In this document: piece by piece, positions 4,320 through 53,798 of the stretch | How positions within the stretch are numbered: the first letter of the stretch is position 1 | How the letters are laid out: every line of letters starts with the position of its first letter | Assembly: GCA_039809385.1 (NCBI GenBank) | Contig: JBDHUY010000007.1 | Span: forward strand, 1 to 64,000 | DNA from: Candidatus Altimarinota bacterium | GTDB taxonomy: Bacteria; Patescibacteriota; Gracilibacteria; JBDHUY01 | Direction: 5' to 3' | Length of the DNA stretch: 64,000 bases | The notes under the pieces: model-generated | Told to the model about the DNA's origin: nothing | Databases searched by the model: none | What the model saw: the letters and a program-made list of their open reading frames with translations, nothing else | Program-made: the position numbers and the translations under genes

Positions 4320-5174
4320 ATGATTGACGCAGCGTTGCCCGGTCATGACGGCTCGGAGTATCTCCCCGATAGTACGAATTTGTTGCGTACGGAACTTTTG
4401 TCGTATATTAAAGACTCGAATCGCTTTTCCGCTCAGGAGCAAAATCTGATTCTACAGGCGATGCAACTAGCGTGTCAGCTTCACGCCGCTCAGATTACCC
4501 GGGGAGACGGACCCTATAATAATCATTTGCTGCGAGTTGCTTTGAAACTCGTCCGCGATTTTCAAGTGTACGATGCCGAGCTCATTTGCGCGGCTCTCCT
4601 GCACGACAGCGTCGAAGATCAGGTACCCGCGCTGGCGGCTAAATTTTCTCCGGAACAGGTCCACAGCCAAAGTACCGACGGATTAACAGATGATACGAAA
4701 GCTCTTGCCTTCATACAGAGTTTATTTGGGAAACGTGTGGCACAGGTGGTTGGAGATCTCACGAATCCTAAAGCCAACTTTGTCAGTATGGAACAGAAAC
4801 ATGACATTTATATTGAGCATCTCAAACAAATTATCATTAATGCAGATAATTTTCGAGTGAAACTGGCCGATTTTTTTGACAATGCTCTGCGGCTTGATCA
4901 TGTGCAAACTACTGCAAGATTGCTAAGAATGGCTCACAAATATGGACCGGCTTATCAAATTATGATTGCACGCTTAGATATTGCCGATCACGGTCTATCC
5001 TCCGAAATCGTGATACGCCTAAAACTGCTACTGGCAGAGGGCCATGACAAAGCTATGGCTATTTTGACTGCTGTCCCGGATGATTCTTCCCAGAGTACGG
5101 CAGCATCCATTATCGTGCCCAACGTACCTGTTACTGGCATTACATTTACCCCCGTTCCAACGGGGCAATATTGA
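4320..5174 (+). CDS. HD-domain protein, small alarmone hydrolase (RelA/SpoT HD, Mesh1-like)
   Basis: H-x2-Q-x2-R-x3-PY-x2-H, ALLHDSVED, VKLAD motifs; no synthetase domain. Confidence 0.8.
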   Translation: MIDAALPGHDGSEYLPDSTNLLRTELLSYIKDSNRFSAQEQNLILQAMQLACQLHAAQITRGDGPYNNHLLRVALKLVRDFQVYDAELICAALLHDSVEDQVPALAAKFSPEQVHSQSTDGLTDDTKALAFIQSLFGKRVAQVVGDLTNPKANFVSMEQKHDIYIEHLKQIIINADNFRVKLADFFDNALRLDHVQTTARLLRMAHKYGPAYQIMIARLDIADHGLSSEIVIRLKLLLAEGHDKAMAILTAVPDDSSQSTAASIIVPNVPVTGITFTPVPTGQY

Positions 5175-7410
5175 GCGCCAATTTTTTGATACCGATTTTG
5201 GGATCTTTGAAAGCGATGGTTGCCACGTCACCTTTGGTCTGCACGATAATGCCTTCCCCCCAGGTTTTGTGTATCACTTTGTCGCCGTCGTTAAATGCCC
5301 GGGCCGATTTCGATTCGGTGATTCTTTCGCGCAGGCTCTGATCGGCACTCTTCTCTTTGTACTGTGCCGTACTTTCCATGTAGGTTTCCGGTATTTCGAA
5401 GATGAAACGCGACGGCAGATTGTTTTGATAGTTGCCATACAGCATACGCGAGCGGGCATGCAGTAGAAATAGTTTTTCTTTGGCCCGGGTAATGCCGACA
5501 TACATCAGGCGCCGTTCTTCTTCCAGCTCGTTTTCTGTCCACTGGCTTTGCGAGTGGGGAAATATTCCTTCCTCTAAACCCGCGATAAATACATATGGAA
5601 ATTCAAGACCTTTGGCATTATGCAATGTCATTAGGATTACCCCGTCTTCTTTTTTCTCTTCCAGCACGTCCACTTGGGCGATCAACGATACTTCTTCCAG
5701 AAAGGTTGAGAGCGAGATAGCCGGTTCGAGTTGGTCGTACTTGGAGGCCACGCTGACCAGTTCCTGCACGTTTTCCCAACGCTCTTCGCCTTCGGAAGTG
5801 CCATCCAGCAAAAAGTCTTTGTACTGGCTGGTTTGCAGTATGTATCGCAGCAATGCCGAAACCGGGAACTCGTTCCGTTTGGTCCGGCCGTCCAGTAAGA
5901 AATCGTAAAATGCTTTAAGGCTGGTTTTGGCACGTGCTGGCAGTTCTATCATCTCTGTACCCCGGTGAACGGCCTCAAACAGAGGAATATCGTATTTCGT
6001 GGCATAGTCAGCCAAAGTACTCACTGTCGAAGGGCCGATGCTACGGGGAGGTGTATTGATGATGCGTAACAGGCTCACCGTATCAGCCGGATTTTGTATA
6101 ACTTTTAGATAGGCTAGCACGTCTTTAATCTCTTTACGCTGATAGAAGGAAACCCCACCGACAATTTTATACGGAATACCATGGCGCAAAAACGCTTCTT
6201 CCATGATACGACTCTGGGCGTTGGTTCGGTAAAGGATGGCGAAATCGGAGAAGGAAAGGGGGGAGTTCAGAGTGCGGAGTTCGGAGTTCGCAGCTTCCTG
6301 ATCCCGGCTGTCGGCTGTTGGCTGTAAGCTGTTAGCTTTCTCCGCTTGATAGCTGGCCGGTGGTAACTGACCGCTCTGCTTGATTCTCTCCTGAATGATC
6401 CCGATGATCCGGTCACCTTCGTCCCGTTCGTCGTACGCTTCGATCAGGACGATTTTTTCATCGCTCACCTTATCGGTCCAGAGCGTTTTGTCGGTCCGTT
6501 TGTTATTGCGTTTTATGACATGGTTTGCGGCCTCCACGATCACATTGGTCGAGCGATAGTTCTGTTCCAGTTTTATAACAACCGCTTCAGGGTAGTCTTT
6601 CTGAAAATTCAGAATGTTCGTCATATCGGCTCCCCGCCAAGAATAAATGGATTGCCAGTCGTCGCCGATCACGCACATGTTGCGATACTTCTCGGCTAAC
6701 AGTTGGGCAAACGTATACTGTGCCATATTGGTGTCCTGATACTCGTCGATCGAAATATAGCGAAACTGCTCCTGATATCTATCCAGAATATCCGGAAATT
6801 TCTGGAACAGTTCGATCGTTCGGAAAATGAGATCGTCAAAATCGAAAGCCTGACTTTTTTTGAGCTCTTTCTGGTAAATCGGGTAAAGTTTGGCAACTTG
6901 CTCTTCGAAATAACTGTTTACATAATTTTGATATTGCTGCTCGTTGATCAGACTATTTTTAGCCCGGCTGATATGCGACAAAACAGTCTTGGGATTATAC
7001 TGTTTTTCGTCGTACTGGTTTTCTTTCAAGATCTTTTTCATCAACGCCTCGCTGTCCGCCGTATCGTAGATAACGAAATTATTTTCATAGCCCAGGTTCT
7101 GGGCTTCGCGGCGCAGCAGTCGCACGCATACCGAATGGAACGTCCCCACGATCGGTTCGACGGCATACGGACCATGTTCCACCAGCAGGGCTTTAATTCG
7201 CTCCTTCATTTCGGTAGCGGCTTTATTGGTAAACGTGACCGCCAGAATATTCTTGGCATCCACGCCTTTTTCCCGGATCAAATAAGCGATCCGATAGGTC
7301 AGCGCCTTGGTTTTGCCCGAACCGGCCCCGGCAATGATCAGTAAAGGGCCTTCGGTCGTAGTCACCGCCTGTCGCTGGGGCTCGTTCAACTCTTTGAGAA
7401 AATCGTGCAT
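5146..7410 (-). CDS. pcrA: ATP-dependent DNA helicase PcrA/UvrD
   Basis: AGAGSGKT, DEYQDTN, GDDWQSIYSWRGA, LEQNYRS, YRTNAQSR, KGLEF, EERRLMYVGITRA and Tudor-like C-terminus. Confidence 0.96.
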   Translation of the reverse strand: MHDFLKELNEPQRQAVTTTEGPLLIIAGAGSGKTKALTYRIAYLIREKGVDAKNILAVTFTNKAATEMKERIKALLVEHGPYAVEPIVGTFHSVCVRLLRREAQNLGYENNFVIYDTADSEALMKKILKENQYDEKQYNPKTVLSHISRAKNSLINEQQYQNYVNSYFEEQVAKLYPIYQKELKKSQAFDFDDLIFRTIELFQKFPDILDRYQEQFRYISIDEYQDTNMAQYTFAQLLAEKYRNMCVIGDDWQSIYSWRGADMTNILNFQKDYPEAVVIKLEQNYRSTNVIVEAANHVIKRNNKRTDKTLWTDKVSDEKIVLIEAYDERDEGDRIIGIIQERIKQSGQLPPASYQAEKANSLQPTADSRDQEAANSELRTLNSPLSFSDFAILYRTNAQSRIMEEAFLRHGIPYKIVGGVSFYQRKEIKDVLAYLKVIQNPADTVSLLRIINTPPRSIGPSTVSTLADYATKYDIPLFEAVHRGTEMIELPARAKTSLKAFYDFLLDGRTKRNEFPVSALLRYILQTSQYKDFLLDGTSEGEERWENVQELVSVASKYDQLEPAISLSTFLEEVSLIAQVDVLEEKKEDGVILMTLHNAKGLEFPYVFIAGLEEGIFPHSQSQWTENELEEERRLMYVGITRAKEKLFLLHARSRMLYGNYQNNLPSRFIFEIPETYMESTAQYKEKSADQSLRERITESKSARAFNDGDKVIHKTWGEGIIVQTKGDVATIAFKDPKIGIKKLALNIAPLERG
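6262..6338. repeat. 7-nt periodic tracts inside the pcrA coding sequence
   Basis: ggagttc agagtgc ggagttc ggagttc gcagctt and ggctgtc ggctgtt ggctgta agctgtt agctttc. Confidence 0.75.
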
Positions 7411-16038: not shown

Positions 16039-16301
16039 AGGGGACGAGAATTATGAATTATGATGGATGAAGTATCAAAGTAGGAGTATTTTGTAGTTTG
16101 GCATGTAGCATACCAACAGACAGAATTGTAGAATCCGGAATCAAGAATGTAGGATTTGCTTTTACACGCTACGAGGATTGGTTTTTCGATTTTTTTCTTA
16201 ACTGAAATAGTCTGTTGTAATTGCCAATTTTTTTACTCTCCGCATGTTTAAAGACTCCTAAACGAGCGTCCGCTTAGTTAGAAGCGAACCTATCATTCGC
16301 A

Positions 16302-17028: not shown

Positions 17029-17155
17029 AAAATCTCAAAGTTCATCTGCCGTGGCGGATCAAATATCAAAGGAGGTGCAAAACTCCAGTCTCACAATATT
17101 TAGATATTTGAACTTGGGATTTCTTTTGTCATTTGGATTTTTGAACTTTGATATT
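17029..17155. repeat. Heptamer-periodic inverted-repeat element with internal GC palindrome
   Basis: AAA-framed left arm, TTT-framed right arm, atctgccgtggcggat insert at 17044-17059. Confidence 0.7.
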
Positions 17156-17300
17156 ATTTTCGCCAAATCTTCAAAAAGTAAATTCGTAATGGTAAGTCCG
17201 GCAGCCATTTTTAAAGAACCCATACCGAAAAAAACGCTTTCCTTAGCATACTGTTATAAAAAATCAAGATAAAAATCGCATAAAAAAGAGCAAAAAACCC

Positions 17301-20089: not shown

Positions 20090-20122
20090 GTTCTTTAGTA
20101 CACAGTCCAAAGTACTTAGTCC

Positions 20123-20434
20123 TTAGTCGGGGTCCTTTTCTTTGATAAGTTTTTTTACTCTGACTGCTATCCGCATGGGAAGAACCACTACCTCCGACTT
20201 TTGACTAGGCACTATGGACTTAGTACTTAGTCGGGGTCCTTTTCTTTGATAAGTTTTTTTACTCTGACTGCTATCCGCATGGGAAGAACCACTACCTCCG
20301 ACTTTTGACTAGGCACTATGGACTTAGTACTTAGTCGGGGTCCTTTTCTTTGATAAGTTTTTTTACTCTGGCTGCTATCCGCATGGGAAGAACCACTACC
20401 TCCGACTTTTGACTAGGCACTATGGACTTAGTAC
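20123..20434. repeat. Tandem repeat, 3 x 104 bp
   Basis: Units start at 20123, 20227 and 20331; identical except A>G at 20371. Confidence 0.95.
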
Positions 20435-20453
20435 TTAGCACGGTGTGTTTCCT

Positions 20454-22360: not shown

Positions 22361-22497
22361 AAAGCTCAAATGTCATCCGCCGCGGCGGACAAATTTCAAA
22401 ATAAGCCCAAAATCCAAAGACCAAAGATTCATATTCAGTCTTTTGAACTTTCTAATTTGATATTCTTTTGACATTTGAGTTTTGAAATTTGTTGTTT
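22361..22497. repeat. Heptamer-periodic inverted-repeat element with internal GC palindrome
   Basis: Same layout as 17029-17155; tccgccgcggcgga at 22376-22389. Confidence 0.7.
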
Positions 22498-29924: not shown

Positions 29925-31103
29925 TCATGTTTTTCTGCTGTTTTCAATCGCCTCTAACGTCGGGAAATGCTCGTCCGTGAGAAACGACAGCATCGCGCCG
30001 CCGCCGGTTGAAACGTGGGTGAAGTTGGCAAGTCCGAATTTCTTGATGATCACCAGCGTATCGCCGCCCCCCAGCACCCGGAAAGCGTTCTCGTGCTGTT
30101 CGACGATTCTACCGACGCTTTTACTGCCTTCGGCTGTTTCGGGCCACTCGTAGACGCCGACCGGACCATTCCACAGAACCGTTTTGGCGTTCTGAATATG
30201 CTCTTTGAACAACTCGATCGTCCGGGGGCCGATATCCACGGCTACTTTGCCTTCGGGTATCTCGTTCACCGTTTCCAGCGTTTCGATATATTCGGAGCCG
30301 AAGCGATCGATGATTTTATGGTCGACCGGCAGAACGATCTTGTCCGAGGCGGTTTGGAGCATCTCTTGGGCCACGGCTATTTTATCTTCTTCCAGCCGCG
30401 AATTGCCGATTGGCAATCCTTTGGCCTTCATGAGTGTATAGGTCATAGCGCCACCAACCAGAATCTTGTCGGCAACCGGGAGCAAGGCTTGCATCAAATC
30501 AACCTTTTCGGAAAGTTTAGCACCGCCCAAAATTACCGTATAGGGGTGCTCGGGGCTTTTACAACGTTCCAGTGCACTGATCTCGCGATAAAACAAGGGT
30601 CCCAGATACGATGGCAGAAACTGGGCAATATCGGTACAAGAAGCCGATTCGCGGTAATCGGCAAAAGCATCGTTGATGAAGATCTCTCCCAAGCTTGCCA
30701 ACTCTTTGGCAAACTGTTCCCGCTCAGTCGCATCTTTTGATTCTTCTCCGGCAAAAAAGCGAATATTGTCGATCAAATAGACTCCTGTGTTGTCTTCGCT
30801 CTCAAGTTTTGGTTCGGGAACGAGTTTAATAGTAAGCGACGACATCTTTGTCTGAAGCCACTGTTGCACCGTTTTGAACGATTGTTTCTCGTCGTATGCG
30901 CCTTTGGGTCTGCCCAAATGACCGATGATCACGACTCGCTCGGCCTGCTCAGCCAGTTCTTGAATGAACGGCAATGCTTCGACCAGTCGGGTATCATCCA
31001 GAATCTCACCATTCTCATCTAGGGGCACATTCAAACAGGTCCGCAAGATAACTTTTTTGCCGGTGTAGATCTGGGGCGTGGCGAGGAGGGAAGAGTAGTC
31101 CAT
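29925..31103 (-). CDS. pgk: Phosphoglycerate kinase (divergent)
   Basis: LNVPL, GHLGRP, GGAKLSEK, DIGP, WNGPVGVYE, GGGDT, HVSTGGGA. Confidence 0.93.
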   Translation of the reverse strand: MDYSSLLATPQIYTGKKVILRTCLNVPLDENGEILDDTRLVEALPFIQELAEQAERVVIIGHLGRPKGAYDEKQSFKTVQQWLQTKMSSLTIKLVPEPKLESEDNTGVYLIDNIRFFAGEESKDATEREQFAKELASLGEIFINDAFADYRESASCTDIAQFLPSYLGPLFYREISALERCKSPEHPYTVILGGAKLSEKVDLMQALLPVADKILVGGAMTYTLMKAKGLPIGNSRLEEDKIAVAQEMLQTASDKIVLPVDHKIIDRFGSEYIETLETVNEIPEGKVAVDIGPRTIELFKEHIQNAKTVLWNGPVGVYEWPETAEGSKSVGRIVEQHENAFRVLGGGDTLVIIKKFGLANFTHVSTGGGAMLSFLTDEHFPTLEAIENSRKT

Positions 31104-31201: not shown

Positions 31202-31337
31202 AAATCTTAAATCCGAATAGCGAAATTCTAAACAAATTCGAAATTTCAATTTTTCAAATTACAAACTTTAGGTAGAAGGCGTTTAGAATTTCTAGTTTAC
31301 AATTTGTTTCGAATTTATGATTTAGTATTTCTAATTT
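31202..31337. repeat. Heptamer-periodic inverted-repeat element
   Basis: (AAAnnnn)4-AAAC-(AAAnnnn)4-AAAC-loop-GTTT-(nnnnTTT)3-GTTT-(nnnnTTT)4. Confidence 0.85.
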
Positions 31338-31390
31338 GTATGCCTATATGAACGTATCAGCATAAAAAAAATTGCCCGTAGACGCCATTA

Positions 31391-32413
31391 TTACATCTTA
31401 CTTACCACAAGGCGGAGCGCATCCGCCAACCGGCAGGAATACCCCCACTCGTTATCATACCAGGAAACCAGTTTGAAGAAGCGGCTGTTGAGCTCGATAC
31501 CGGCGGTGGCATCGTAGATGCTGGAGCGCGAATCGTGGATGAAGTCGGAAGAAACAACTGCGTCCTCGGTGTACCCGAGGATATCTTTCAGGTAGGTCTC
31601 GCTGGCTTTTTTCATAGCAGCATTAATCTCTTTCAAACTGGTCTCTTTGGTCGTTTTAAAAGTCAGGTCTACCACTGATACGTCCGGTGTGGGAACGCGG
31701 AAGGCCATCCCGGTCAGTTTTCCTTTGATCTCGGGAATGACCAGACCGACTGCTTTGGCAGCCCCGGTCGAGGCTGGAATAATATTGAGAGCTCCCGCCC
31801 GGCCATCGCGGAAGGCTTTGCGGCTGGGGCCATCGATGATCATCTGCGTCGCGGTATAGGAATGAGCGGTGGTCATCAAACCTTCTTCTATGCCAAAACC
31901 TTCTTTGAGCAAAACATGGACCAGAGGAGCCAGACAGTTGGTCGTGCAGCTGGCGTTGGAAATCATATCTTCGCCGTTGTAGGAATCGTGATTGACGCCC
32001 ATGACGATCGTTTTGACCGTCTCGTCGCTGGGAGCCGAAATCAGTACCTTTTTAGCCCCGGCGGTCAAATGTCCGGAGGCATCGGCACTCTTGGTGAATA
32101 GTCCGCTACACTCGATCACAACGTCAATATTATGTTCTTTCCAGGGTAGTTCTTCCGGACGTACTTTCATCGCCAGAGTTTTGATGGTTTGATTGCCTAC
32201 CTGGAGGGTATGTTCATCAATGGCTTTTACCTCAGCCGGAAAACGACCGTGGGTTGAGTCATATTTGAGCAGATAAGCGATATTGTCTGCCGGCACAATG
32301 TCATTTACGGCCACAACCTCTACCGCGCCGTCCAGCATATTGTGTTCGTAAATACTGCGAAAAATCAGTCGTCCGATGCGGCCAAAGCCGTTGATAGCAA
32401 CACGGGTAGCCAT
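31391..32413 (-). CDS. gap: Type I glyceraldehyde-3-phosphate dehydrogenase
   Basis: [34 protein letters not shown]. Confidence 0.97.
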
Positions 32414-32483
32414 AGTGGTGAGAGTGAATTAGAAAGTAAATAGAGAAAGAAAATTTGTAATGAGTTGATGCAAGAACTCTATA

Positions 32484-32622
32484 AAATTCGAAGCGCTAAA
32501 TCTTAAATTCTAAACAAATCATAAATGAAGAAATCACAAACTTTAAACTTCTGCTTCTGTTTGGAATTTGAAAATTAAAATTTCGTATTTGTTTCGAATT
32601 TAGAGTTTCAAATTTAAAATTT
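32484..32622. repeat. Heptamer-periodic inverted-repeat element
   Basis: aaattcg aagcgct aaatctt aaattct aaac ... gttt cgaattt agagttt caaattt aaaattt. Confidence 0.85.
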
Positions 32623-32675
32623 TTTACCCGCTGCAACTCTCCTAGTATACATTGAGAAAGAATCATCTTCAACGC

Positions 32676-33455
32676 CTATCCTTGCGCACTCTCCTTCACC
32701 GCCTCGATAATTTTCAAAAACGAATCGCTTTCCAGACTGGCTCCTCCGACGAGCACGCCGTCGATATCAGGTTGCTCAATATAGGAGGCGGTTGTGTCGG
32801 GTTTGACGCTGCCGCCGTAGAGAATTGAAATTTTTGTAGCAGTCGCTTCATCATACAGACGTGTCAGAAGCGAACGAATGAACTGGTGCATCTTCTGAGC
32901 GTCGGCAGCGTTGGCCGATTTGCCGGTACCGATAGCCCAGACCGGCTCGTAGGCAATAATAATCTTTTCTACCTTGGCTGCTTCAAGGCCATACAGTGCA
33001 ATTTTAATCTGGGATCCGACCCGCTCTTCTTCCAGTCCTCGTTCGCGCTCTTCCAATGTTTCGCCGACGCACAAGATCGGAACGAGTCCGCTTTCGAGCG
33101 CCCGGGCCACTTTTTTCCCTACCCGGAAATCTTCTTCGGCATAGTAGGTTCTGCGTTCCGAATGGCCCACAATCACATACTTGGCACCGGCATCCAGAAT
33201 CATTTCGGCGCTGACTTCGCCGGTGTAAGCACCTGACGCGGCTTCTGCACACAGATTTTGCGCCGCTGTATGCACGACCGTATTCTGGCAACGTTGACTG
33301 ACCGCAGCGACGGCTAAAAACTGCGGGGCGATAACTACATGTACATTCTGTTCGGACTCATCTCCCAAACCTTCGATGATCCCGACGGTCGTATTGACGG
33401 AGTCTTGAATCGTCTTGTTCATTTTCCAGTTGGCCACGCAGTAGAGAGGTCGCAT
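32676..33455 (-). CDS. tpiA: Triosephosphate isomerase
   Basis: NWKMN, GHSERR, AYEPVWAIGTG, YGGSV, LVGGASL. Confidence 0.97.
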   Translation of the reverse strand: MRPLYCVANWKMNKTIQDSVNTTVGIIEGLGDESEQNVHVVIAPQFLAVAAVSQRCQNTVVHTAAQNLCAEAASGAYTGEVSAEMILDAGAKYVIVGHSERRTYYAEEDFRVGKKVARALESGLVPILCVGETLEERERGLEEERVGSQIKIALYGLEAAKVEKIIIAYEPVWAIGTGKSANAADAQKMHQFIRSLLTRLYDEATATKISILYGGSVKPDTTASYIEQPDIDGVLVGGASLESDSFLKIIEAVKESAQG

Positions 33456-33764
33456 AGATTTTCAAGAGTTTAAAAGTAATGAAGCACGAAAATAGCATGG
33501 GCTCGTCAGGCATTCCAGATATTTTTCCGCTATTTTCTTGATATGTTCGATAAATAAGTATCTGGCAATACTTCGGTATGGACGATTATTTGCGATTTTG
33601 GCCTGCCGAATGCCGATTCCCGTAGTACGTATTTTCTGCCCCGTCGAAGCTCCTTTGTTCCGGTTCTCCTATAAAAAAAGAAAAAACCTCTTGTCTCTTT
33701 CTCAAAGTCATTTTATTATTAAGATTCCGCGTCTGCCGTTACTTTTTAATTATACCTAATTCTT

Positions 33765-34508
33765 ATGGATACATCCAAGGTAGAAAAACAGGGTAGAATA
33801 TTTCTCTTAGCCTATGATCAGGGACTCGAACACGGTCCGGCCGATTTTAACGAATGGAGTGCCGATCCGGCTAACATTATTAAAACTGGTTTGGAAGGTG
33901 GAGCTACGTGTATTGCGTTTCAATACGGTATTGCTCGCCGATTCTATACGCCCGATCTCAAAGACAAACTTCCTTTGATTCTCAAAGTAAACGGCAAGAG
34001 CAATCTGAATAAGAAAAATTATCTCGGGGCGCTTACCGCTTCGGTAGAGGACGCCGTCAAACTGGGTGCGGTCGGTATCGGTTTCACCATCAACCCCGGC
34101 CAGACCGACGAACATATTGCCTATGATCAATTTGTGCACCTGCGTCGCGAAGCCGAGAAGGCCGGTCTCTTTACCGCAGTCTGGTCGTATGCCCGCGGAC
34201 CTGAAATCGAGAACCAGTTTGATCCGAAAGTCGTAGCATATGCCGTTCGTATTGCCGTGGAACTGGGGGCCGATATGGTCAAGGTCAAATATCCCGGTTC
34301 GGCCGAAACTTTTGCGTATGCGGTGCAAAATGCCGCCGGCGCCAAAGTGCTGGCTTCCGGAACCGATAATTTTCAAGGCGATTATATCGAAGCCGTCGCC
34401 GAAATGCTGGAATCCGGTGCTCATGGTATCGCGGTGGGGCGCAAGGTCTGGCAGGACGAAAAGGCGGTGGACGTTGCGAAAGGACTTTCAAAAGTACTGT
34501 TTGGATAA
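33765..34508 (+). CDS. Class I (DhnA/archaeal-type) fructose-bisphosphate aldolase
   Basis: LAYDQGLEHGP, WSYARG, ELGADMVKVKY (Schiff-base Lys), GRKVWQ. Confidence 0.9.
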   Translation: MDTSKVEKQGRIFLLAYDQGLEHGPADFNEWSADPANIIKTGLEGGATCIAFQYGIARRFYTPDLKDKLPLILKVNGKSNLNKKNYLGALTASVEDAVKLGAVGIGFTINPGQTDEHIAYDQFVHLRREAEKAGLFTAVWSYARGPEIENQFDPKVVAYAVRIAVELGADMVKVKYPGSAETFAYAVQNAAGAKVLASGTDNFQGDYIEAVAEMLESGAHGIAVGRKVWQDEKAVDVAKGLSKVLFG

Positions 34509-34509
34509 T

Positions 34510-34616
34510 AAATTCGAAATTCCAAATCTCAAACTGGAAACAGTTATAAGAAATTGGAATTTCTGATTTAGTGCTTGTGGTTTGTTTAGAAAGTAGATAT
34601 TCGAATTTAGAATTTC
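34510..34616. repeat. Heptamer-periodic inverted-repeat element (left arm shortened)
   Basis: aaattcg aaattcc aaatctc aaactgg aaac ... gttt agaaagt agatatt cgaattt agaattt. Confidence 0.8.
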
Positions 34617-34642
34617 ATTCATAAATCATAAATAAATCTTCC

Positions 34643-35998
34643 ATGTACAAAGCCATTATCATCGGAGCCGGCCCCTCGGGCTATACCGCTGCTATTCGTA
34701 TTTCTCAGCTGGGGGGCAAAGCCCTGTTGATCGAACGGGATCTGGTAGGCGGCATTTGTGTCAACTGGGGTTGTACCCCGAGCAAGGCGATGATTACTTC
34801 CGCGAAATATGTTAAAGCCGTTCAGAGCGCAGCTCACTATGGGGTACATCCGGGCGATGTAAAAATCGATTTCCCGCGAATTGCCGAACGGCGGGACGAA
34901 GTGATCAATCGTAGCCGTCTCGAAATTCGCGATCTGCTGGACCACTGGAACGTCGATGTGGTCGAAGGTAGTGCCCAAGTAGTAGATCCTACTCATGTCA
35001 AAGTTGGCGATACCGTCTACGAAGGCGAGCATATTATCTATGCCTCAGGATCCCAGCCGCTGGTTCCGAATTTGTTTGACGAGCAGGATCCGAGTATTTG
35101 TAACAGTAATAAACTGATTACGATCAAGGAACTACCAGAACAATTGACCATTATCGGCGGCGGCATTATCGGACTCGAATTTGCTACCATGTTCTGCCAT
35201 TTCGGTTGCAAAGTGACGATCGTCGAATTTCTCGATCGATGTCTTTTTAGCATGGATCCCGAAATCTCGTTGGCCATTACCGACGAACTTACCAAGATCG
35301 GCGTCAAGATTTATACCGGACACAAAGTGCTGAAGGTCGAACAAGGAAAACTTACCATCGAAAACCAGCAAACCAAGGTAATCGAAACCCTCGATTCTCC
35401 TTTTAATCTGATTGCTATCGGCCGTAAGGCCGTGATTAACAAAGAAGAGATGGAAAAAATGGGTATCCAGGCTACGGATAAAGGTATCGGCGTGAACGAA
35501 TACTTACAGACATCTGTCCCGAATATCTATGCGGTAGGGGATGCTACGGGACAGAGTATTTTAGCCCATGTGGCTATCCAACAGGGCATTATCGCAGCGG
35601 AACATATCATGCAGCACGGGAACCGGGCGATGAATTACGACGTTATTCCGGCAGTGGTCTATACGTTACCCGAGGTGGCGACTGTCGGAAAGGTTCCGAC
35701 AGATACCCATGGGGTGAAGATCGTTAAATTCCCCTTTTCTCACAACCTGCGCGCTACGATTGAAGAGCATAGCGCTGGTTTCGTGAAATTATGGATCGAC
35801 CAGTCCACTCAACAACTTGTGGCAGCTCAAATCATCGGCGACATGGCTGGCGAGATTATTCAGGCCTATGCGAATATTATTCAGCTTAAAACACCGATTG
35901 ATCAAGTTGCCAATACGATTCATGCCCATCCGACCTATAACGAGATCGTGCGGAATTCACTGGAACACGCATTGGGAAGAGCGATAGAATACTTTTAG
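34643..35998 (+). CDS. lpdA: Dihydrolipoyl dehydrogenase / class I pyridine nucleotide-disulfide oxidoreductase
   Basis: GAGPSG, GGICVNWGCTPSK redox disulfide, GGGIIGLE, HAHPTYNE. Confidence 0.85.
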   Translation: MYKAIIIGAGPSGYTAAIRISQLGGKALLIERDLVGGICVNWGCTPSKAMITSAKYVKAVQSAAHYGVHPGDVKIDFPRIAERRDEVINRSRLEIRDLLDHWNVDVVEGSAQVVDPTHVKVGDTVYEGEHIIYASGSQPLVPNLFDEQDPSICNSNKLITIKELPEQLTIIGGGIIGLEFATMFCHFGCKVTIVEFLDRCLFSMDPEISLAITDELTKIGVKIYTGHKVLKVEQGKLTIENQQTKVIETLDSPFNLIAIGRKAVINKEEMEKMGIQATDKGIGVNEYLQTSVPNIYAVGDATGQSILAHVAIQQGIIAAEHIMQHGNRAMNYDVIPAVVYTLPEVATVGKVPTDTHGVKIVKFPFSHNLRATIEEHSAGFVKLWIDQSTQQLVAAQIIGDMAGEIIQAYANIIQLKTPIDQVANTIHAHPTYNEIVRNSLEHALGRAIEYF

Positions 35999-36038
35999 TT
36001 AGTTATGGAACGCACAAGTTTGAAATACTTCCTTATTT

Positions 36039-36180
36039 GAAATTCCAAACTCGAATATCGAAATACGAAACAAATCACAAATACGAAACCAGAAATTCCA
36101 AACTTTCATTTTCCCGTTTGGAATTTGAAAATTAGAATTTAGAATTTGTTTAGTATTTATGATTTAGAATTTCGTATTTC
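36039..36180. repeat. Heptamer-periodic inverted-repeat element (most regular copy)
   Basis: aaattcc aaactcg aatatcg aaatacg aaac aaatcac aaatacg aaaccag aaattcc aaac [12 nt] gttt ggaattt gaaaatt agaattt agaattt gttt agtattt atgattt agaattt cgtattt. Confidence 0.9.
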
Positions 36181-36240: not shown

Positions 36241-37323
36241 ATGCGAAAGATCGGTATTATCAACGGCGGTGGCGATTGCGCCGGCATCAATGCGGTTATT
36301 GCAGCCGCAGTTAAGTCGGGTAAGCCGTACGGTTATACCTATTACGGCTTTGAAAAAGGCTGGGGCGGCGTATTGGATATGAATTACCGGGTATTGGACG
36401 AAGAAGCAGTGCGTGGGATTGCACACTTGGGCGGAACTATTTTAAAAACCACGAATAAAGGAAAATTTACCGCTATCGTAGGGGTAGGACAGAAGGCCAC
36501 ATATCCGCCGGAACTGATCCAGGCGGTTTTGACGAATCTGAAAAAACTCGACATCGATACGTTGCTAGTGATCGGCGGCGACGGGACCATGGCCGGTGCG
36601 CTGCAATTTGTTCCTCACGGGATCAATATGGTCGGAGTTCCGAAAACAATTGATAACGACCTCAAAAGCACCGATCGTACCTTCGGTTTCAATACCGCCG
36701 TCGACGTCGTAGTCGACGCACTGGATCGAATTCATACTACTGCCTACAGCCACGATCGCGTTATTATCGTTGAAACTATGGGGCGCTACACCGGCTGGAT
36801 CGCCCTCTATGGAGGCCTGGCTGGCGGTGCTGATGTTATTCTCTTGCCGGAATTTCCGTTTAGTACCACGGGGGTGGTAGATTTTTTGCGTAAACGCCGT
36901 TCCAACGACCGCAACTATTCGGTCATTGTGATTGCCGAAGGGGCTAAAGTCCAAGCCCAGGAAGTTCATGTACGTAAAGTTGACGATGCTCATGGCGAAT
37001 CAAAATTGGGAGGGGCAGCGGAACGTTTAATGTACCATATCGAAGAACTTGCTCCCGAAGAATTTGAAATGCGACACGTTGTCCTGGGACATACCCAGCG
37101 TGGCGGAACTCCTAATGCGGATGATCGCATCCTGGCACTTTCCTATGGACACGCCGCTACGGAAGCCATTCACAACGAACAATTTGGTCATATGATTGTT
37201 TTACATGAGGGACGAATTAAGACAGTTCCACTGGATGGTATGATTGAGGGACTCAAAGGGATAACTCGTCAGAATGACGCCTATCAAACGGCCAAATCGA
37301 TCGGGATTTATATGGGGGAATGA
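36241..37323 (+). CDS. pfkA: 6-phosphofructokinase, PfkA family (group III-like)
   Basis: GGGDCAGINA, GGTILKT, GGDGT, PKTIDND, ETMGR, LGHTQRGG. Confidence 0.93.
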   Translation: MRKIGIINGGGDCAGINAVIAAAVKSGKPYGYTYYGFEKGWGGVLDMNYRVLDEEAVRGIAHLGGTILKTTNKGKFTAIVGVGQKATYPPELIQAVLTNLKKLDIDTLLVIGGDGTMAGALQFVPHGINMVGVPKTIDNDLKSTDRTFGFNTAVDVVVDALDRIHTTAYSHDRVIIVETMGRYTGWIALYGGLAGGADVILLPEFPFSTTGVVDFLRKRRSNDRNYSVIVIAEGAKVQAQEVHVRKVDDAHGESKLGGAAERLMYHIEELAPEEFEMRHVVLGHTQRGGTPNADDRILALSYGHAATEAIHNEQFGHMIVLHEGRIKTVPLDGMIEGLKGITRQNDAYQTAKSIGIYMGE

Positions 37324-37548
37324 AGCAAGAATCTAGAATCAAGAATAGAGGCAACGTCAATCAGGTTTCATTAGCCGTTTCAAAGTAGGTTCCTGTTTGC
37401 TTCTAATCTCCATCCAAGATTCTTTCTAAAGAAGTATCTTGAAGGTGTCGTTTTGCGGTCAAGCCACAAAATCTATACATTACAAGTCCATCGATTCGTT
37501 CTCTATAACCCGGAAATGATATAATAAAACGATATCATCATTTTCCGT

Positions 37549-40369: not shown

Positions 40370-40445
40370 AAAGTCCAAAATTAAAAAATGTAAAGTGATA
40401 CGATCATTTTTCACTTGAGACTTTTTACTTTACATTTCAGATTTC
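40370..40445. repeat. Short degenerate heptamer hairpin element upstream of typA
   Basis: aaagtcc aaaatta aaaaatg taaagtg ... cacttga gactttt tacttta catttca gattt. Confidence 0.55.
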
Positions 40446-40466
40446 ATTTCCTGTCTAACCTTCCTT

Positions 40467-53544: not shown

Positions 53545-53798
53545 GGAAGAAGTTTGGAGATTGGAGAGGGGAGTTGGCAGGGGCAGCCTGACAGCCTGTT
53601 TGCAGTGGGATCGTCTTCCTTCTTCTTGGCGGGGCTGGTTTCTTAAACCGCCATCCCGCCCATAAAGCGAGCCCATTGAGGCTTGTCCGGAACCTCTTCA
53701 TTTACCTGGAACTTTGTGAGCGTTTTTTATGATGCTTCACCAATACCAATTCCATTTCAAACTAACATGTTGTATTTTTCGTGTACTACAATGTTTTT

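Follow-up and report, generated by a model that had tools for sequence, protein, structure and literature searches.

What are the four long hairpins that separate the glycolysis genes of a Candidatus Altimarinota bacterium? The genes lie in a stretch of 64,000 nt (the window; positions 1 to 64,000 of contig JBDHUY010000007.1, assembly GCA_039809385.1), which is part of an assembly of 1.87 Mb with 46% GC, 26 contigs (labelled C1, C2 and so on) and a completeness of 95%. An earlier note on the window, made from its letters, had put forward these hairpins, here called E1 to E4, as the leading candidate for an undescribed system, either empty forms of a mobile element that inserts within operons or RNA structures read by a periodic binding protein. 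On balance, we read E1 to E4 as members of a hairpin family of the intervening sequence (IVS) type that lack an open reading frame (ORF) and consist of inverted arms of degenerate 7-nt units around a short loop.

Four heptameric hairpins in the glycolysis cluster

E1 to E4 are AT-rich, 107-142 nt long and present once at each co-directional junction of the cluster (Table 1). The polarity of the elements, with an A-rich 5' arm and a T-rich 3' arm, is constant on both strands. Their positions were as the earlier note had given them, and its gene names agreed with the Pfam matches, fba being a DeoC/LacD-family aldolase. Identity at a lag of 7 nt amounts to 0.50 in E1, 0.53 in E2, 0.56 in E3 and 0.60 in E4, compared with 0.20-0.45 at lags 4-10; in each case all 1000 dinucleotide shuffles stayed below the observed value. 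The score of the arm-to-arm alignment was reached by 0 (E1), 18 (E2), 2 (E3) and 0 (E4) of 1000 shuffles. Both the periodicity and the symmetry are thus significant against shuffled sequences. In the divergent gap (33456-33764), which had been said to hold no such element, none was found: lag-7 identity is 0.31, a value that 43 of 1000 shuffles reach, and inverted arms are absent (449 of 1000).

RNA folding gave z-scores of -3.05, -1.37, -3.00 and -4.75 for E1 to E4, respectively. The fold of E4 has an energy of -34.1 kcal/mol, and 0 of 200 shuffles folded as well. The scheme proposed for the arms, (AAAnnnn)4-AAAC and its inverse, describes the elements approximately; E3 deviates from it, being a shorter hairpin to which an extra T-rich array is added. 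The variable positions had been thought free and often unpaired. Instead, the copies draw on a small shared vocabulary of units, match one another in nhmmer searches and pair over much of their arms. An Rfam scan of the 64-kb window returned no match at the gathering threshold.

A sequence family with a member in the 23S rRNA gene

When E1 to E4 were used as nhmmer queries against the 321 intergenic heptamer arrays of the genome (described below), about twelve loci were retrieved (Table 1). E2 as a query matches E1, E4 and five further family loci. No hit at E<=0.01 was obtained with 40 dinucleotide-shuffled queries; this control erases the period and therefore overstates specificity, the hits being nonetheless restricted to 12 of the 321 arrays.

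One member of the family, C6:86561-86691 (E 5e-5 with E1), lies within the 23S rRNA gene (C6:84098-87316, - strand). Alignment to the covariance model of the rRNA revealed a 163-nt insert in a helix loop, at model positions 573-600, with rRNA aligning normally on both sides. For the insert, a long and imperfect hairpin is predicted (-49.2 kcal/mol, z -5.35). The site probably corresponds to the helix 25 region, one of the classical IVS sites, and the element is a 23S rRNA IVS at the helix tip. It is presumably excised by RNase III, since this enzyme cuts the stems of IVSs and is encoded here (C2:32749-33138).

Three copies on different contigs (C11:59650-60050, C13:20770-21170 and C9:3330-3700) share about 250 bp, non-periodic flanks included, which points to duplication and not to convergence. 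The outer flanks of these copies begin with CTAGT and end with ACTAG, and these sequences may be a pair of terminal inverted repeats at the outer ends of a larger unit. One relative, from another family, also has a hairpin with the E1-E4 flavour (L120:4920-5225).

IVP genes enclosed by heptamer arms

The genome contains ten genes that match PF05635 (23S_rRNA_IVP), represented by 11 matches, as the C8 gene is split; 10 of the 11 are over the cut-off. Scores with TIGR02436, the four helix bundle protein model, are 77.2, 41.4 and 130.4 bits (cut-off 24). Inspected by eye, all ten genes lie between heptamer arrays, the G-richer array to the left and its complement to the right, and each has its own flavour. 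In two cassettes, C9:95012 and C6:2226, the arms are of the E1-E4 flavour. The proteins of these two cassettes are the closest pair within the genome (50% identity; 15-44% in the ten other own pairs compared). The predicted structure of the C9 cassette has its arms paired with each other and the ORF enclosed between them. The C6 copy appears degraded, its match being confined to profile positions 1-64.

Complementarity of flanks was assessed by comparing the 100 nt upstream of a gene with the reverse complement of the 100 nt downstream, against 200 shuffles (100 for control genes). At p<=0.01, the flanks of 7 of the 10 own IVP genes are inverted-complementary, compared with 7 of 295 among control genes. 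Hence the statement in the earlier note that 7-mer arms surround four-helix-bundle (IVP/bAvd-like) genes was borne out, in this genome and, as shown below, in others. Since two IVP cassettes share the arm flavour of E1 to E4, we regard empty forms of a gene-carrying element as the best description of the four hairpins. The corresponding proposal of the earlier note is largely upheld, in that filled forms with an IVP gene and the same flavour exist; the bias toward operons and the polymorphism that it implied were not seen.

Heptamers and IVP genes in other genomes

Of 101 genomes of the class that were sampled, 60 contain PF05635 matches, up to 17 in a single genome; genome sizes of these relatives range from 0.7 to 2.0 Mb. 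The flanks were surveyed for 97 IVP ORFs, 9 own and 88 from relatives, the split C8 gene and one of 98 loci, which had no ORF hit, being left out. A strict lag-7 array is present within 220 nt of 47 of these ORFs, and on both sides of 23. In 21 of the 23, the inverted distance between the two consensus units is below the direct one. Strict arrays in the flanks number 73 at lag 7, compared with 0, 25, 2 and 4 at lags 5, 8, 10 and 11; the raised value at lag 8 near the IVP genes of relatives suggests octamer-unit variants or frequent one-base phase slips. Flanks are inverted at p<=0.01 in 54 of 87 IVP genes of class relatives (87 of the 88 loci entered this test, one being dropped for want of an ORF hit or because its flanks were too short). 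Among the matches listed, seven from the class relatives G088, G074, G029 and G034 contain two to five in-frame TGA codons, and one further match from G088 contains one, which suggests a recoded stop in part of the class; the genome studied here is normal under table 11.

The association extends to other phyla. In three metagenome-assembled genomes (MAGs) of cyanobacteria and two genomes of Bacteroidota, 14 of 17 IVP genes have strict arrays, after exclusion of 3 of 20 matches that were partial (about 42 profile positions). Arrays number 26 at lag 7, compared with 0, 2, 1 and 0 at lags 5, 8, 10 and 11, and flanks are inverted at p<=0.01 in 10 of the 17 genes.

Genomes with IVP genes also tend to be richer in heptamers overall. 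The lag-7 excess per 100 kb is +5.0, 9.1, 14.4, 15.9, 16.9, 6.6, 11.6, 6.2 and 2.5 in nine IVP-bearing genomes, and +4.1, -4.1, +1.6, -2.5, -8.4 and +1.4, near zero on average, in six IVP-free genomes; it is about +20 in the genome studied here. The values refer to arbitrary samples of 80 kb each (312 kb for G001) and, as the genomes are kin, they describe an association and are not a statistical test.

Might an oligomeric protein instead bind the arrays, on RNA or DNA, as a series of regularly spaced sites? The candidates are the IVP pentamer and a protein of the cold-shock or S1 type, of which each monomer covers about 7 nt. In this view, the hairpins would serve in regulation or packaging and be maintained by selection on their geometry, an explanation that is compatible with an IVS-type origin and that we consider rather unlikely, if the best of the alternatives. 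The earlier note had held that geometry is kept more than sequence, and this is true across genomes too: arm sequence turns over while period and inversion persist, and arrays and IVP genes co-occur. Proteins of this type are known: S23p of Xanthomonas forms a pentamer (PMC4990558), and CspB of B. subtilis binds one per heptamer (PMC4679880); papers given by PMC number are cited here from excerpts. Arrays also abut stop and start codons in a genome that apparently makes no use of Shine-Dalgarno sites: a Shine-Dalgarno-like 4-mer occurs at -20..-5 in 40 of 1074 ATG starts (crude ORF calls), and in the 20 nt before starts G is down to 0.05-0.16 and T up to 0.35-0.57 at most positions.

Among the 44 of 97 IVPs with a strict array within 100 nt, arm flavour varies weakly with IVP similarity (r -0.17, reached by 5 of 2000 permutations). 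The pairing is not strict, as one pair of IVPs that are 85% identical has different arm flavours. Between families the correlation is marginal (r -0.12, 56 of 2000). Co-inheritance alone could account for the correlation. The stronger proposal that each IVP paralogue recognises its own flavour was rejected, the correlation being weak.

Heptamer arrays throughout the genome

In pooled intergenic DNA, identity peaks at lags 7, 14 and 21. Periodic segments (>=19/28 matches) number 247 at lag 7 and 6-51 at lags 4-12. At lag 7 there are 420-423 arrays with three or more units and a fixed 4-mer, compared with 29, 57, 68 and 58 at lags 5, 8, 10 and 11. The genome-wide scan that the earlier note had called for thus found the signal far beyond the glycolysis cluster. 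Crude ORF calls place 83 of the 423 arrays within ORFs and 321 in a total of 226 intergenic spacers. Units have about four fixed core positions and three variable ones; flavours are many, and perfect runs of about 20 units exist.

Junction type has little influence on where the signal is found. Of the 694 co-directional gaps, 106 hold periodic segments, as do 30 of 231 divergent and 18 of 187 convergent ones, so that the expected enrichment between co-directional genes was not found. Likewise, co-directional ORF calls surround 9 of the 12 family loci and 62% of all spacers, which is no real bias. Thus, a hairpin at every co-directional junction is a property of the glycolysis cluster and not a rule of the genome.

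The spacers in which arrays lie seem to have expanded in this lineage specifically. In 18 gene pairs that are adjacent in both this genome and a 312-kb sample of G001, the sole relative from the same family (a small sample, with protein identities of 35-69%), gaps with arrays here have a median of 293 nt against 110 nt in the relative (8 pairs), and those without have a median of 204 nt against 231 nt (10 pairs). G001 has a GC content of 58%, compared with 46% here, and its genome is about half as large; it shows neither an IVP match nor an excess of heptamers.

Hundreds of arrays in many flavours, with their long perfect runs, are also what replication slippage would leave behind. Heptamers resembling the short tandemly repeated repetitive (STRR) sequences would in this case arise as simple-sequence by-products and decay, and hairpins would form by chance inversion, being neither elements in their own right nor functional. 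Most arrays are indeed unpaired, no junction type is preferred, and intergenic heptamers are known in other lineages (PMC4679880). We nevertheless judge this explanation unlikely. Arrays are strongly polar within spacers, as judged from 4-mer counts in left and right halves (CAAA 44:11, TTTG 14:26; GTAT 28:5, ATAC 5:16; GGAG 13:3, CTCC 3:18; pooled Fisher p 2e-19, with a core list picked after seeing the co-directional data). Moreover, near-identical copies share flanks that are not repetitive, one copy sits at a 23S helix tip, and inverted flanks surround IVP genes in three phyla.

That the elements are intrinsic, possibly bidirectional, terminators or attenuators, as the invariable succession of A-rich tract, stem and T-rich tract between genes on both strands might suggest, is very improbable: their stems are long, AT-rich and interrupted instead of short and GC-rich, they separate genes of one pathway in operon arrangement, termination within the 23S rRNA gene, in which a member of the same family lies, would be lethal, and short GC-rich hairpins followed by T runs, which look like true terminators, occur separately in the genome.

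Polymorphism, mobility and points against an IVS-type family

Several results weigh against reading E1 to E4 as empty members of a mobile, IVS-type family. Folding support is uneven: E2 is weak by this measure, given its z of -1.37, its fold is matched by 17 of 200 shuffles, and the stems are AT-rich and interrupted. Similarity among copies could in part reflect the shared frame and not descent. An inverted partner to the right is found for only 18% of left-hand arrays, compared with 3-6% in controls, and spacers with periodic segments fold no better (mean z -0.64 vs -1.0; 293 spacers on contigs C1-C4 of 26). These two results ruled out the notion that all arrays are hairpins and imply that hairpins like E1 to E4 are a well-preserved minority. 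Among relatives, 33 of 87 IVP genes are without significant inverted flanks.

Signs of movement were also few. E1, E2 and E3 are identical in contigs of three further runs from two other studies, with no insertion and no difference in unit number, so that the presence/absence polymorphism looked for was not found; public contigs often break at the hairpin loops, leaving parts of the elements uncovered. A target-site duplication is not evident in the alignment of three copies with their flanks. No recombinase and no match to the reverse transcriptase family RVT_1 were found in the genome. A single Y1_Tnp match (C2:140099-140314, 22.7 bits) is borderline, as the 23-bit cut-off is met only with its frame neighbours. 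IVP itself is not a known transposase, and full copies with an IVP gene carry that ORF alone and no transposase, families beyond Y1 not having been searched. That the operons are co-transcribed and that RNase III cleaves E1 to E4 is what we infer, the cleavage by analogy; mobility, its direction (from filled to empty forms or the reverse) and any role of the IVP protein are likewise something we infer.

Of the genes that the earlier note expected in the loops of longer copies, neither a GxxExxY/PDDEXK_3 gene nor a reverse transcriptase was found anywhere in the genome. In a scan of metagenome contigs for relatives with the same cluster, the best identity was 66%, with no empty site to compare, and in the gap loci of seven relatives neither pgk nor tpiA lies within 1.5 kb of gap, hence there is no orthologous junction.

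Public assemblies break at the E4 loop, and contigs of two of four runs (X1 and X5) join E3 to E4 on opposite strands; the positions concerned are 34542, 36095 and 36097-36104. Hairpins of this kind cause assembly breaks and chimeric joints, so that they are probably under-represented in MAGs.

Comparison with known systems

The closest known relatives of the elements are the IVSs of 23S rRNA in Salmonella, Leptospira, Coxiella and others, some of which contain an S23p/IVP ORF. rRNA IVSs have complementary border sequences and are excised by RNase III without religation (PMC4990558). In Coxiella, the ORF for S23p (IVP) is preceded by tandem heptamer repeats, the number of which varies among strains, and the first repeat holds an RNase III site; S23p of Xanthomonas is a homopentameric toroid (PMC4990558). 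IVP ORFs are also found in rRNA inserts of bacteria of the candidate phyla radiation (CPR) (PMC11270868). Likenesses to the elements described here include a long stem made by complementary ends, the existence of some copies that have a PF05635 ORF in the loop and of others that lack it, a family member at a 23S helix tip and the heptamers beside the Coxiella ORF (PMC4990558). In contrast, E1 to E4 and most other copies lie in spacers between protein-coding genes and carry no IVP ORF, the arms are long, degenerate and heptameric in many flavours, and ORF-less arrays number in the hundreds per genome.

Cyanobacteria, Beggiatoaceae and Bacteroidetes are known to have heptamer repeats between genes, and in B. 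subtilis CspB binds heptamer repeats with one protein per heptamer (PMC4679880). As in the present genome, the repeats consist of tandem 7-nt units of several types per genome, in mixed intergenic arrays that are often beside start codons (PMC4679880). The lineages concerned are, judging from the five genomes examined here, also rich in IVP genes. The host differs, being a bacterium with a small CPR-like genome and not a cyanobacterium, and its units are degenerate, strictly polar and often arranged as inverted arms. Judging from the size of related genomes (0.7-2.0 Mb) and the in-frame TGA codons in some of them, the host probably belongs to a CPR lineage near Gracilibacteria; its GAPDH is uninformative in this respect, the best match among genome contigs being 67% identical and from unrelated phyla. 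Cyanobacterial STRR heptamers are said to go back to the description by Mazel et al. 1990. The excerpts of PMC4679880 make no link of heptamer repeats to IVP genes or IVSs.

A hairpin stem of degenerate heptamers (TDNGATT or NNTGAGT) is known from P6b of the group I intron in Nostoc tRNA-Leu(UAA); it varies in length in steps of 7 nt and through the insertion of side loops (PMC4476775). This stem is inside one gene's intron, and the excerpts of PMC4476775 describe neither a dispersed family nor a protein gene.

Repetitive extragenic palindromic (REP) elements, REPINs and miniature inverted-repeat transposable elements (MITEs) resemble the hairpins in being short, dispersed, palindromic, non-coding and intergenic. 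REP hairpins within operons reportedly affect mRNA stability, as found by Newbury et al. 1987. The present elements differ in that no RAYT or other transposase was found here save the borderline Y1 match (Y1 was the family searched) and in that the gene of full copies encodes a four-helix-bundle protein, for which we know of no catalytic activity.

IVP is homologous with Avd of diversity-generating retroelements (DGRs) (PMC10053308). The IVP genes match PF05635/TIGR02436, and one of them weakly matches the DGR Avd model (35.1 bits, cut-off 80). A DGR was ruled out, as the genome has no reverse transcriptase and no pair of template and variable repeats.

How new is the system? Heptamer repeats, heptamer hairpins, IVSs with IVP ORFs and the homology of IVP with Avd are already in print. 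In the literature searched, no paper joins IVSs, IVP genes and heptamer repeats or reports IVS-type hairpins in mRNA spacers; the joining of these elements and the mRNA-spacer hairpins are what appears to be new. The elements are not wholly undescribed, being the same kind as 23S rRNA IVSs, of which one member is an example.

Other heptamer elements and features of the window

The variants listed in the earlier note were recovered as arrays (16053-16148, 20094-20438, 22407-22491, 37312-37354, 40412-40447, 53549-53583 and, in pcrA, 6253-6344), and that at 17029 was recognised by eye. The AGTCC/AGTAC flavour of the repeat at 20094-20438 also flanks the IVP gene at C22:98-403. In pcrA, 347 positions of the UvrD_C profile are matched over a length of 373 residues, as would be expected if about 26-30 residues had been inserted; the helicase gene apparently tolerates a module of the intergenic type, or the module is translated as part of the enzyme.

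A 14-nt GC-rich palindrome (TCCGCC-NN-GGCGGA type) occurs in 32 copies in the genome, in the window at 22376 and near 17060. By eye, most copies are nested at a unit boundary inside arrays of the CAAA/TTTG flavour. The palindrome is nested in two members of the E1-E4 family as well (C9:3551 and C3:139027), and a few copies are flanked by A and T runs in a terminator-like manner. The palindrome is reminiscent of the small dispersed repeats that Elhai et al. 2008 reportedly found nested in cyanobacterial heptamer arrays.

Table 1 Hairpins, heptamer arrays and genes discussed in the text. Positions refer to the window unless a contig is given.
Feature	Position	Strand	Description
E1 hairpin	31202-31337		Spacer between gap and pgk, operon on - strand; A-rich arm, short loop, T-rich arm
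E2 hairpin	32484-32622		Spacer between tpiA and gap; same kind as E1
E3 hairpin	34510-34616		Spacer between aldolase and lpdA-like genes; shorter, begins one base past the stop codon of the aldolase gene; an additional T-rich array, unpaired, comes after it
E4 hairpin	36039-36180		Spacer between lpdA-like gene and pfkA; longest and best paired of the four
Family loci beyond E1-E4	C11:59764, C13:20880, C9:3438, C3:138922, C6:86561, C14:16286, C6:2412, C3:45511		Other contigs of the assembly
Heptamer arrays inside pcrA/uvrD ORF (5146-7410)	6253-6344	-	CAGCnnA, then AACTCCn, in frame
Heptamer arrays	16053-16148		ATGAATT and GAATCnn flavours; in divergent gap
Hairpin, CAAAnnn...nnnTTTG flavour	17029-17160		Small GC-rich palindrome nested in 5' arm; by eye; related copy at 22361-22491
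Tandem repeat	20094-20438	+	About 104 bp, 3-4 copies, intergenic; holds AGTCC/AGTAC-type heptamer arrays
Hairpin, CAAA/TTTG flavour	22361-22491		Nested 14-nt GC palindrome at 22376; complementary arrays 22407-22425 and 22467-22491
Heptamer array	37312-37354	+	GAATCnA; begins at pfkA stop codon
pgk	29925-31103	-	PF00162, E 6e-110; start is the first Met fitting the profile
gap (GAPDH)	31391-32413	-	PF00044 and PF02800
tpiA (TIM)	32676-33455	-	PF00121
DeoC/LacD-family aldolase (class I type)	33765-34508	+	PF01791
lpdA-like flavoprotein disulphide oxidoreductase (pyridine-nucleotide type)	34643-35998	+	PF07992 and PF02852
pfkA (PFK)	36241-37323	+	PF00365

Discussion

One sequence family supplies the 23S insert and the arms of two of the ten IVP genes, the other IVP genes sitting in other flavours. 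In their behaviour, the elements are like selfish or near-neutral DNA that is dispersed among intergenic spacers and has also settled at the tip of one rRNA helix, and the glycolysis cluster simply holds four of about twelve copies of one flavour. E1 to E4 would be transcribed within the tpiA-gap-pgk and aldolase-lpdA-pfkA transcripts, where each would form a long hairpin with imperfect pairing. As they are hairpins of the same kind as the 23S insert, they would most likely be cut by the host RNase III, by analogy with all rRNA IVSs examined to date, and the polycistronic RNA would then fall into pieces ending in stem remnants. The scarcity of Shine-Dalgarno sites and the depletion of G before starts offer, as a speculation, a possible reason for the constant orientation of the C/T-rich arm towards the start codon that follows.

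A wider proposal, which we put forward tentatively as possible and less probable than the reading of E1 to E4 itself, is that IVP (TIGR02436, bAvd-like) genes and their inverted heptamer arms form one widespread class of selfish elements, to be found in CPR bacteria, cyanobacteria and Bacteroidota as well as in proteobacteria with IVSs. As a factor acting in trans, the IVP pentamer would recognise the 7-nt periodic arms and promote their spread or retention, and ORF-less forms would comprise the classical rRNA IVSs without an ORF, the STRRs of cyanobacteria, for long unexplained, and hairpins within operons such as E1 to E4.

In the genome studied here, one sequence family is found in three settings, namely a 23S helix tip, the surroundings of IVP genes and bare hairpins between glycolysis genes. 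The origin of rRNA IVSs, the function of the very common IVP/S23p family and the littering of some phyla with heptamers may therefore have a single answer. If the wider proposal is true, processing of such hairpins by RNase III would be a general means of cutting polycistronic RNA in these genomes. For a genome without Shine-Dalgarno sites, hairpins that serve as RNase III sites would provide a cheap way of segmenting operon transcripts.

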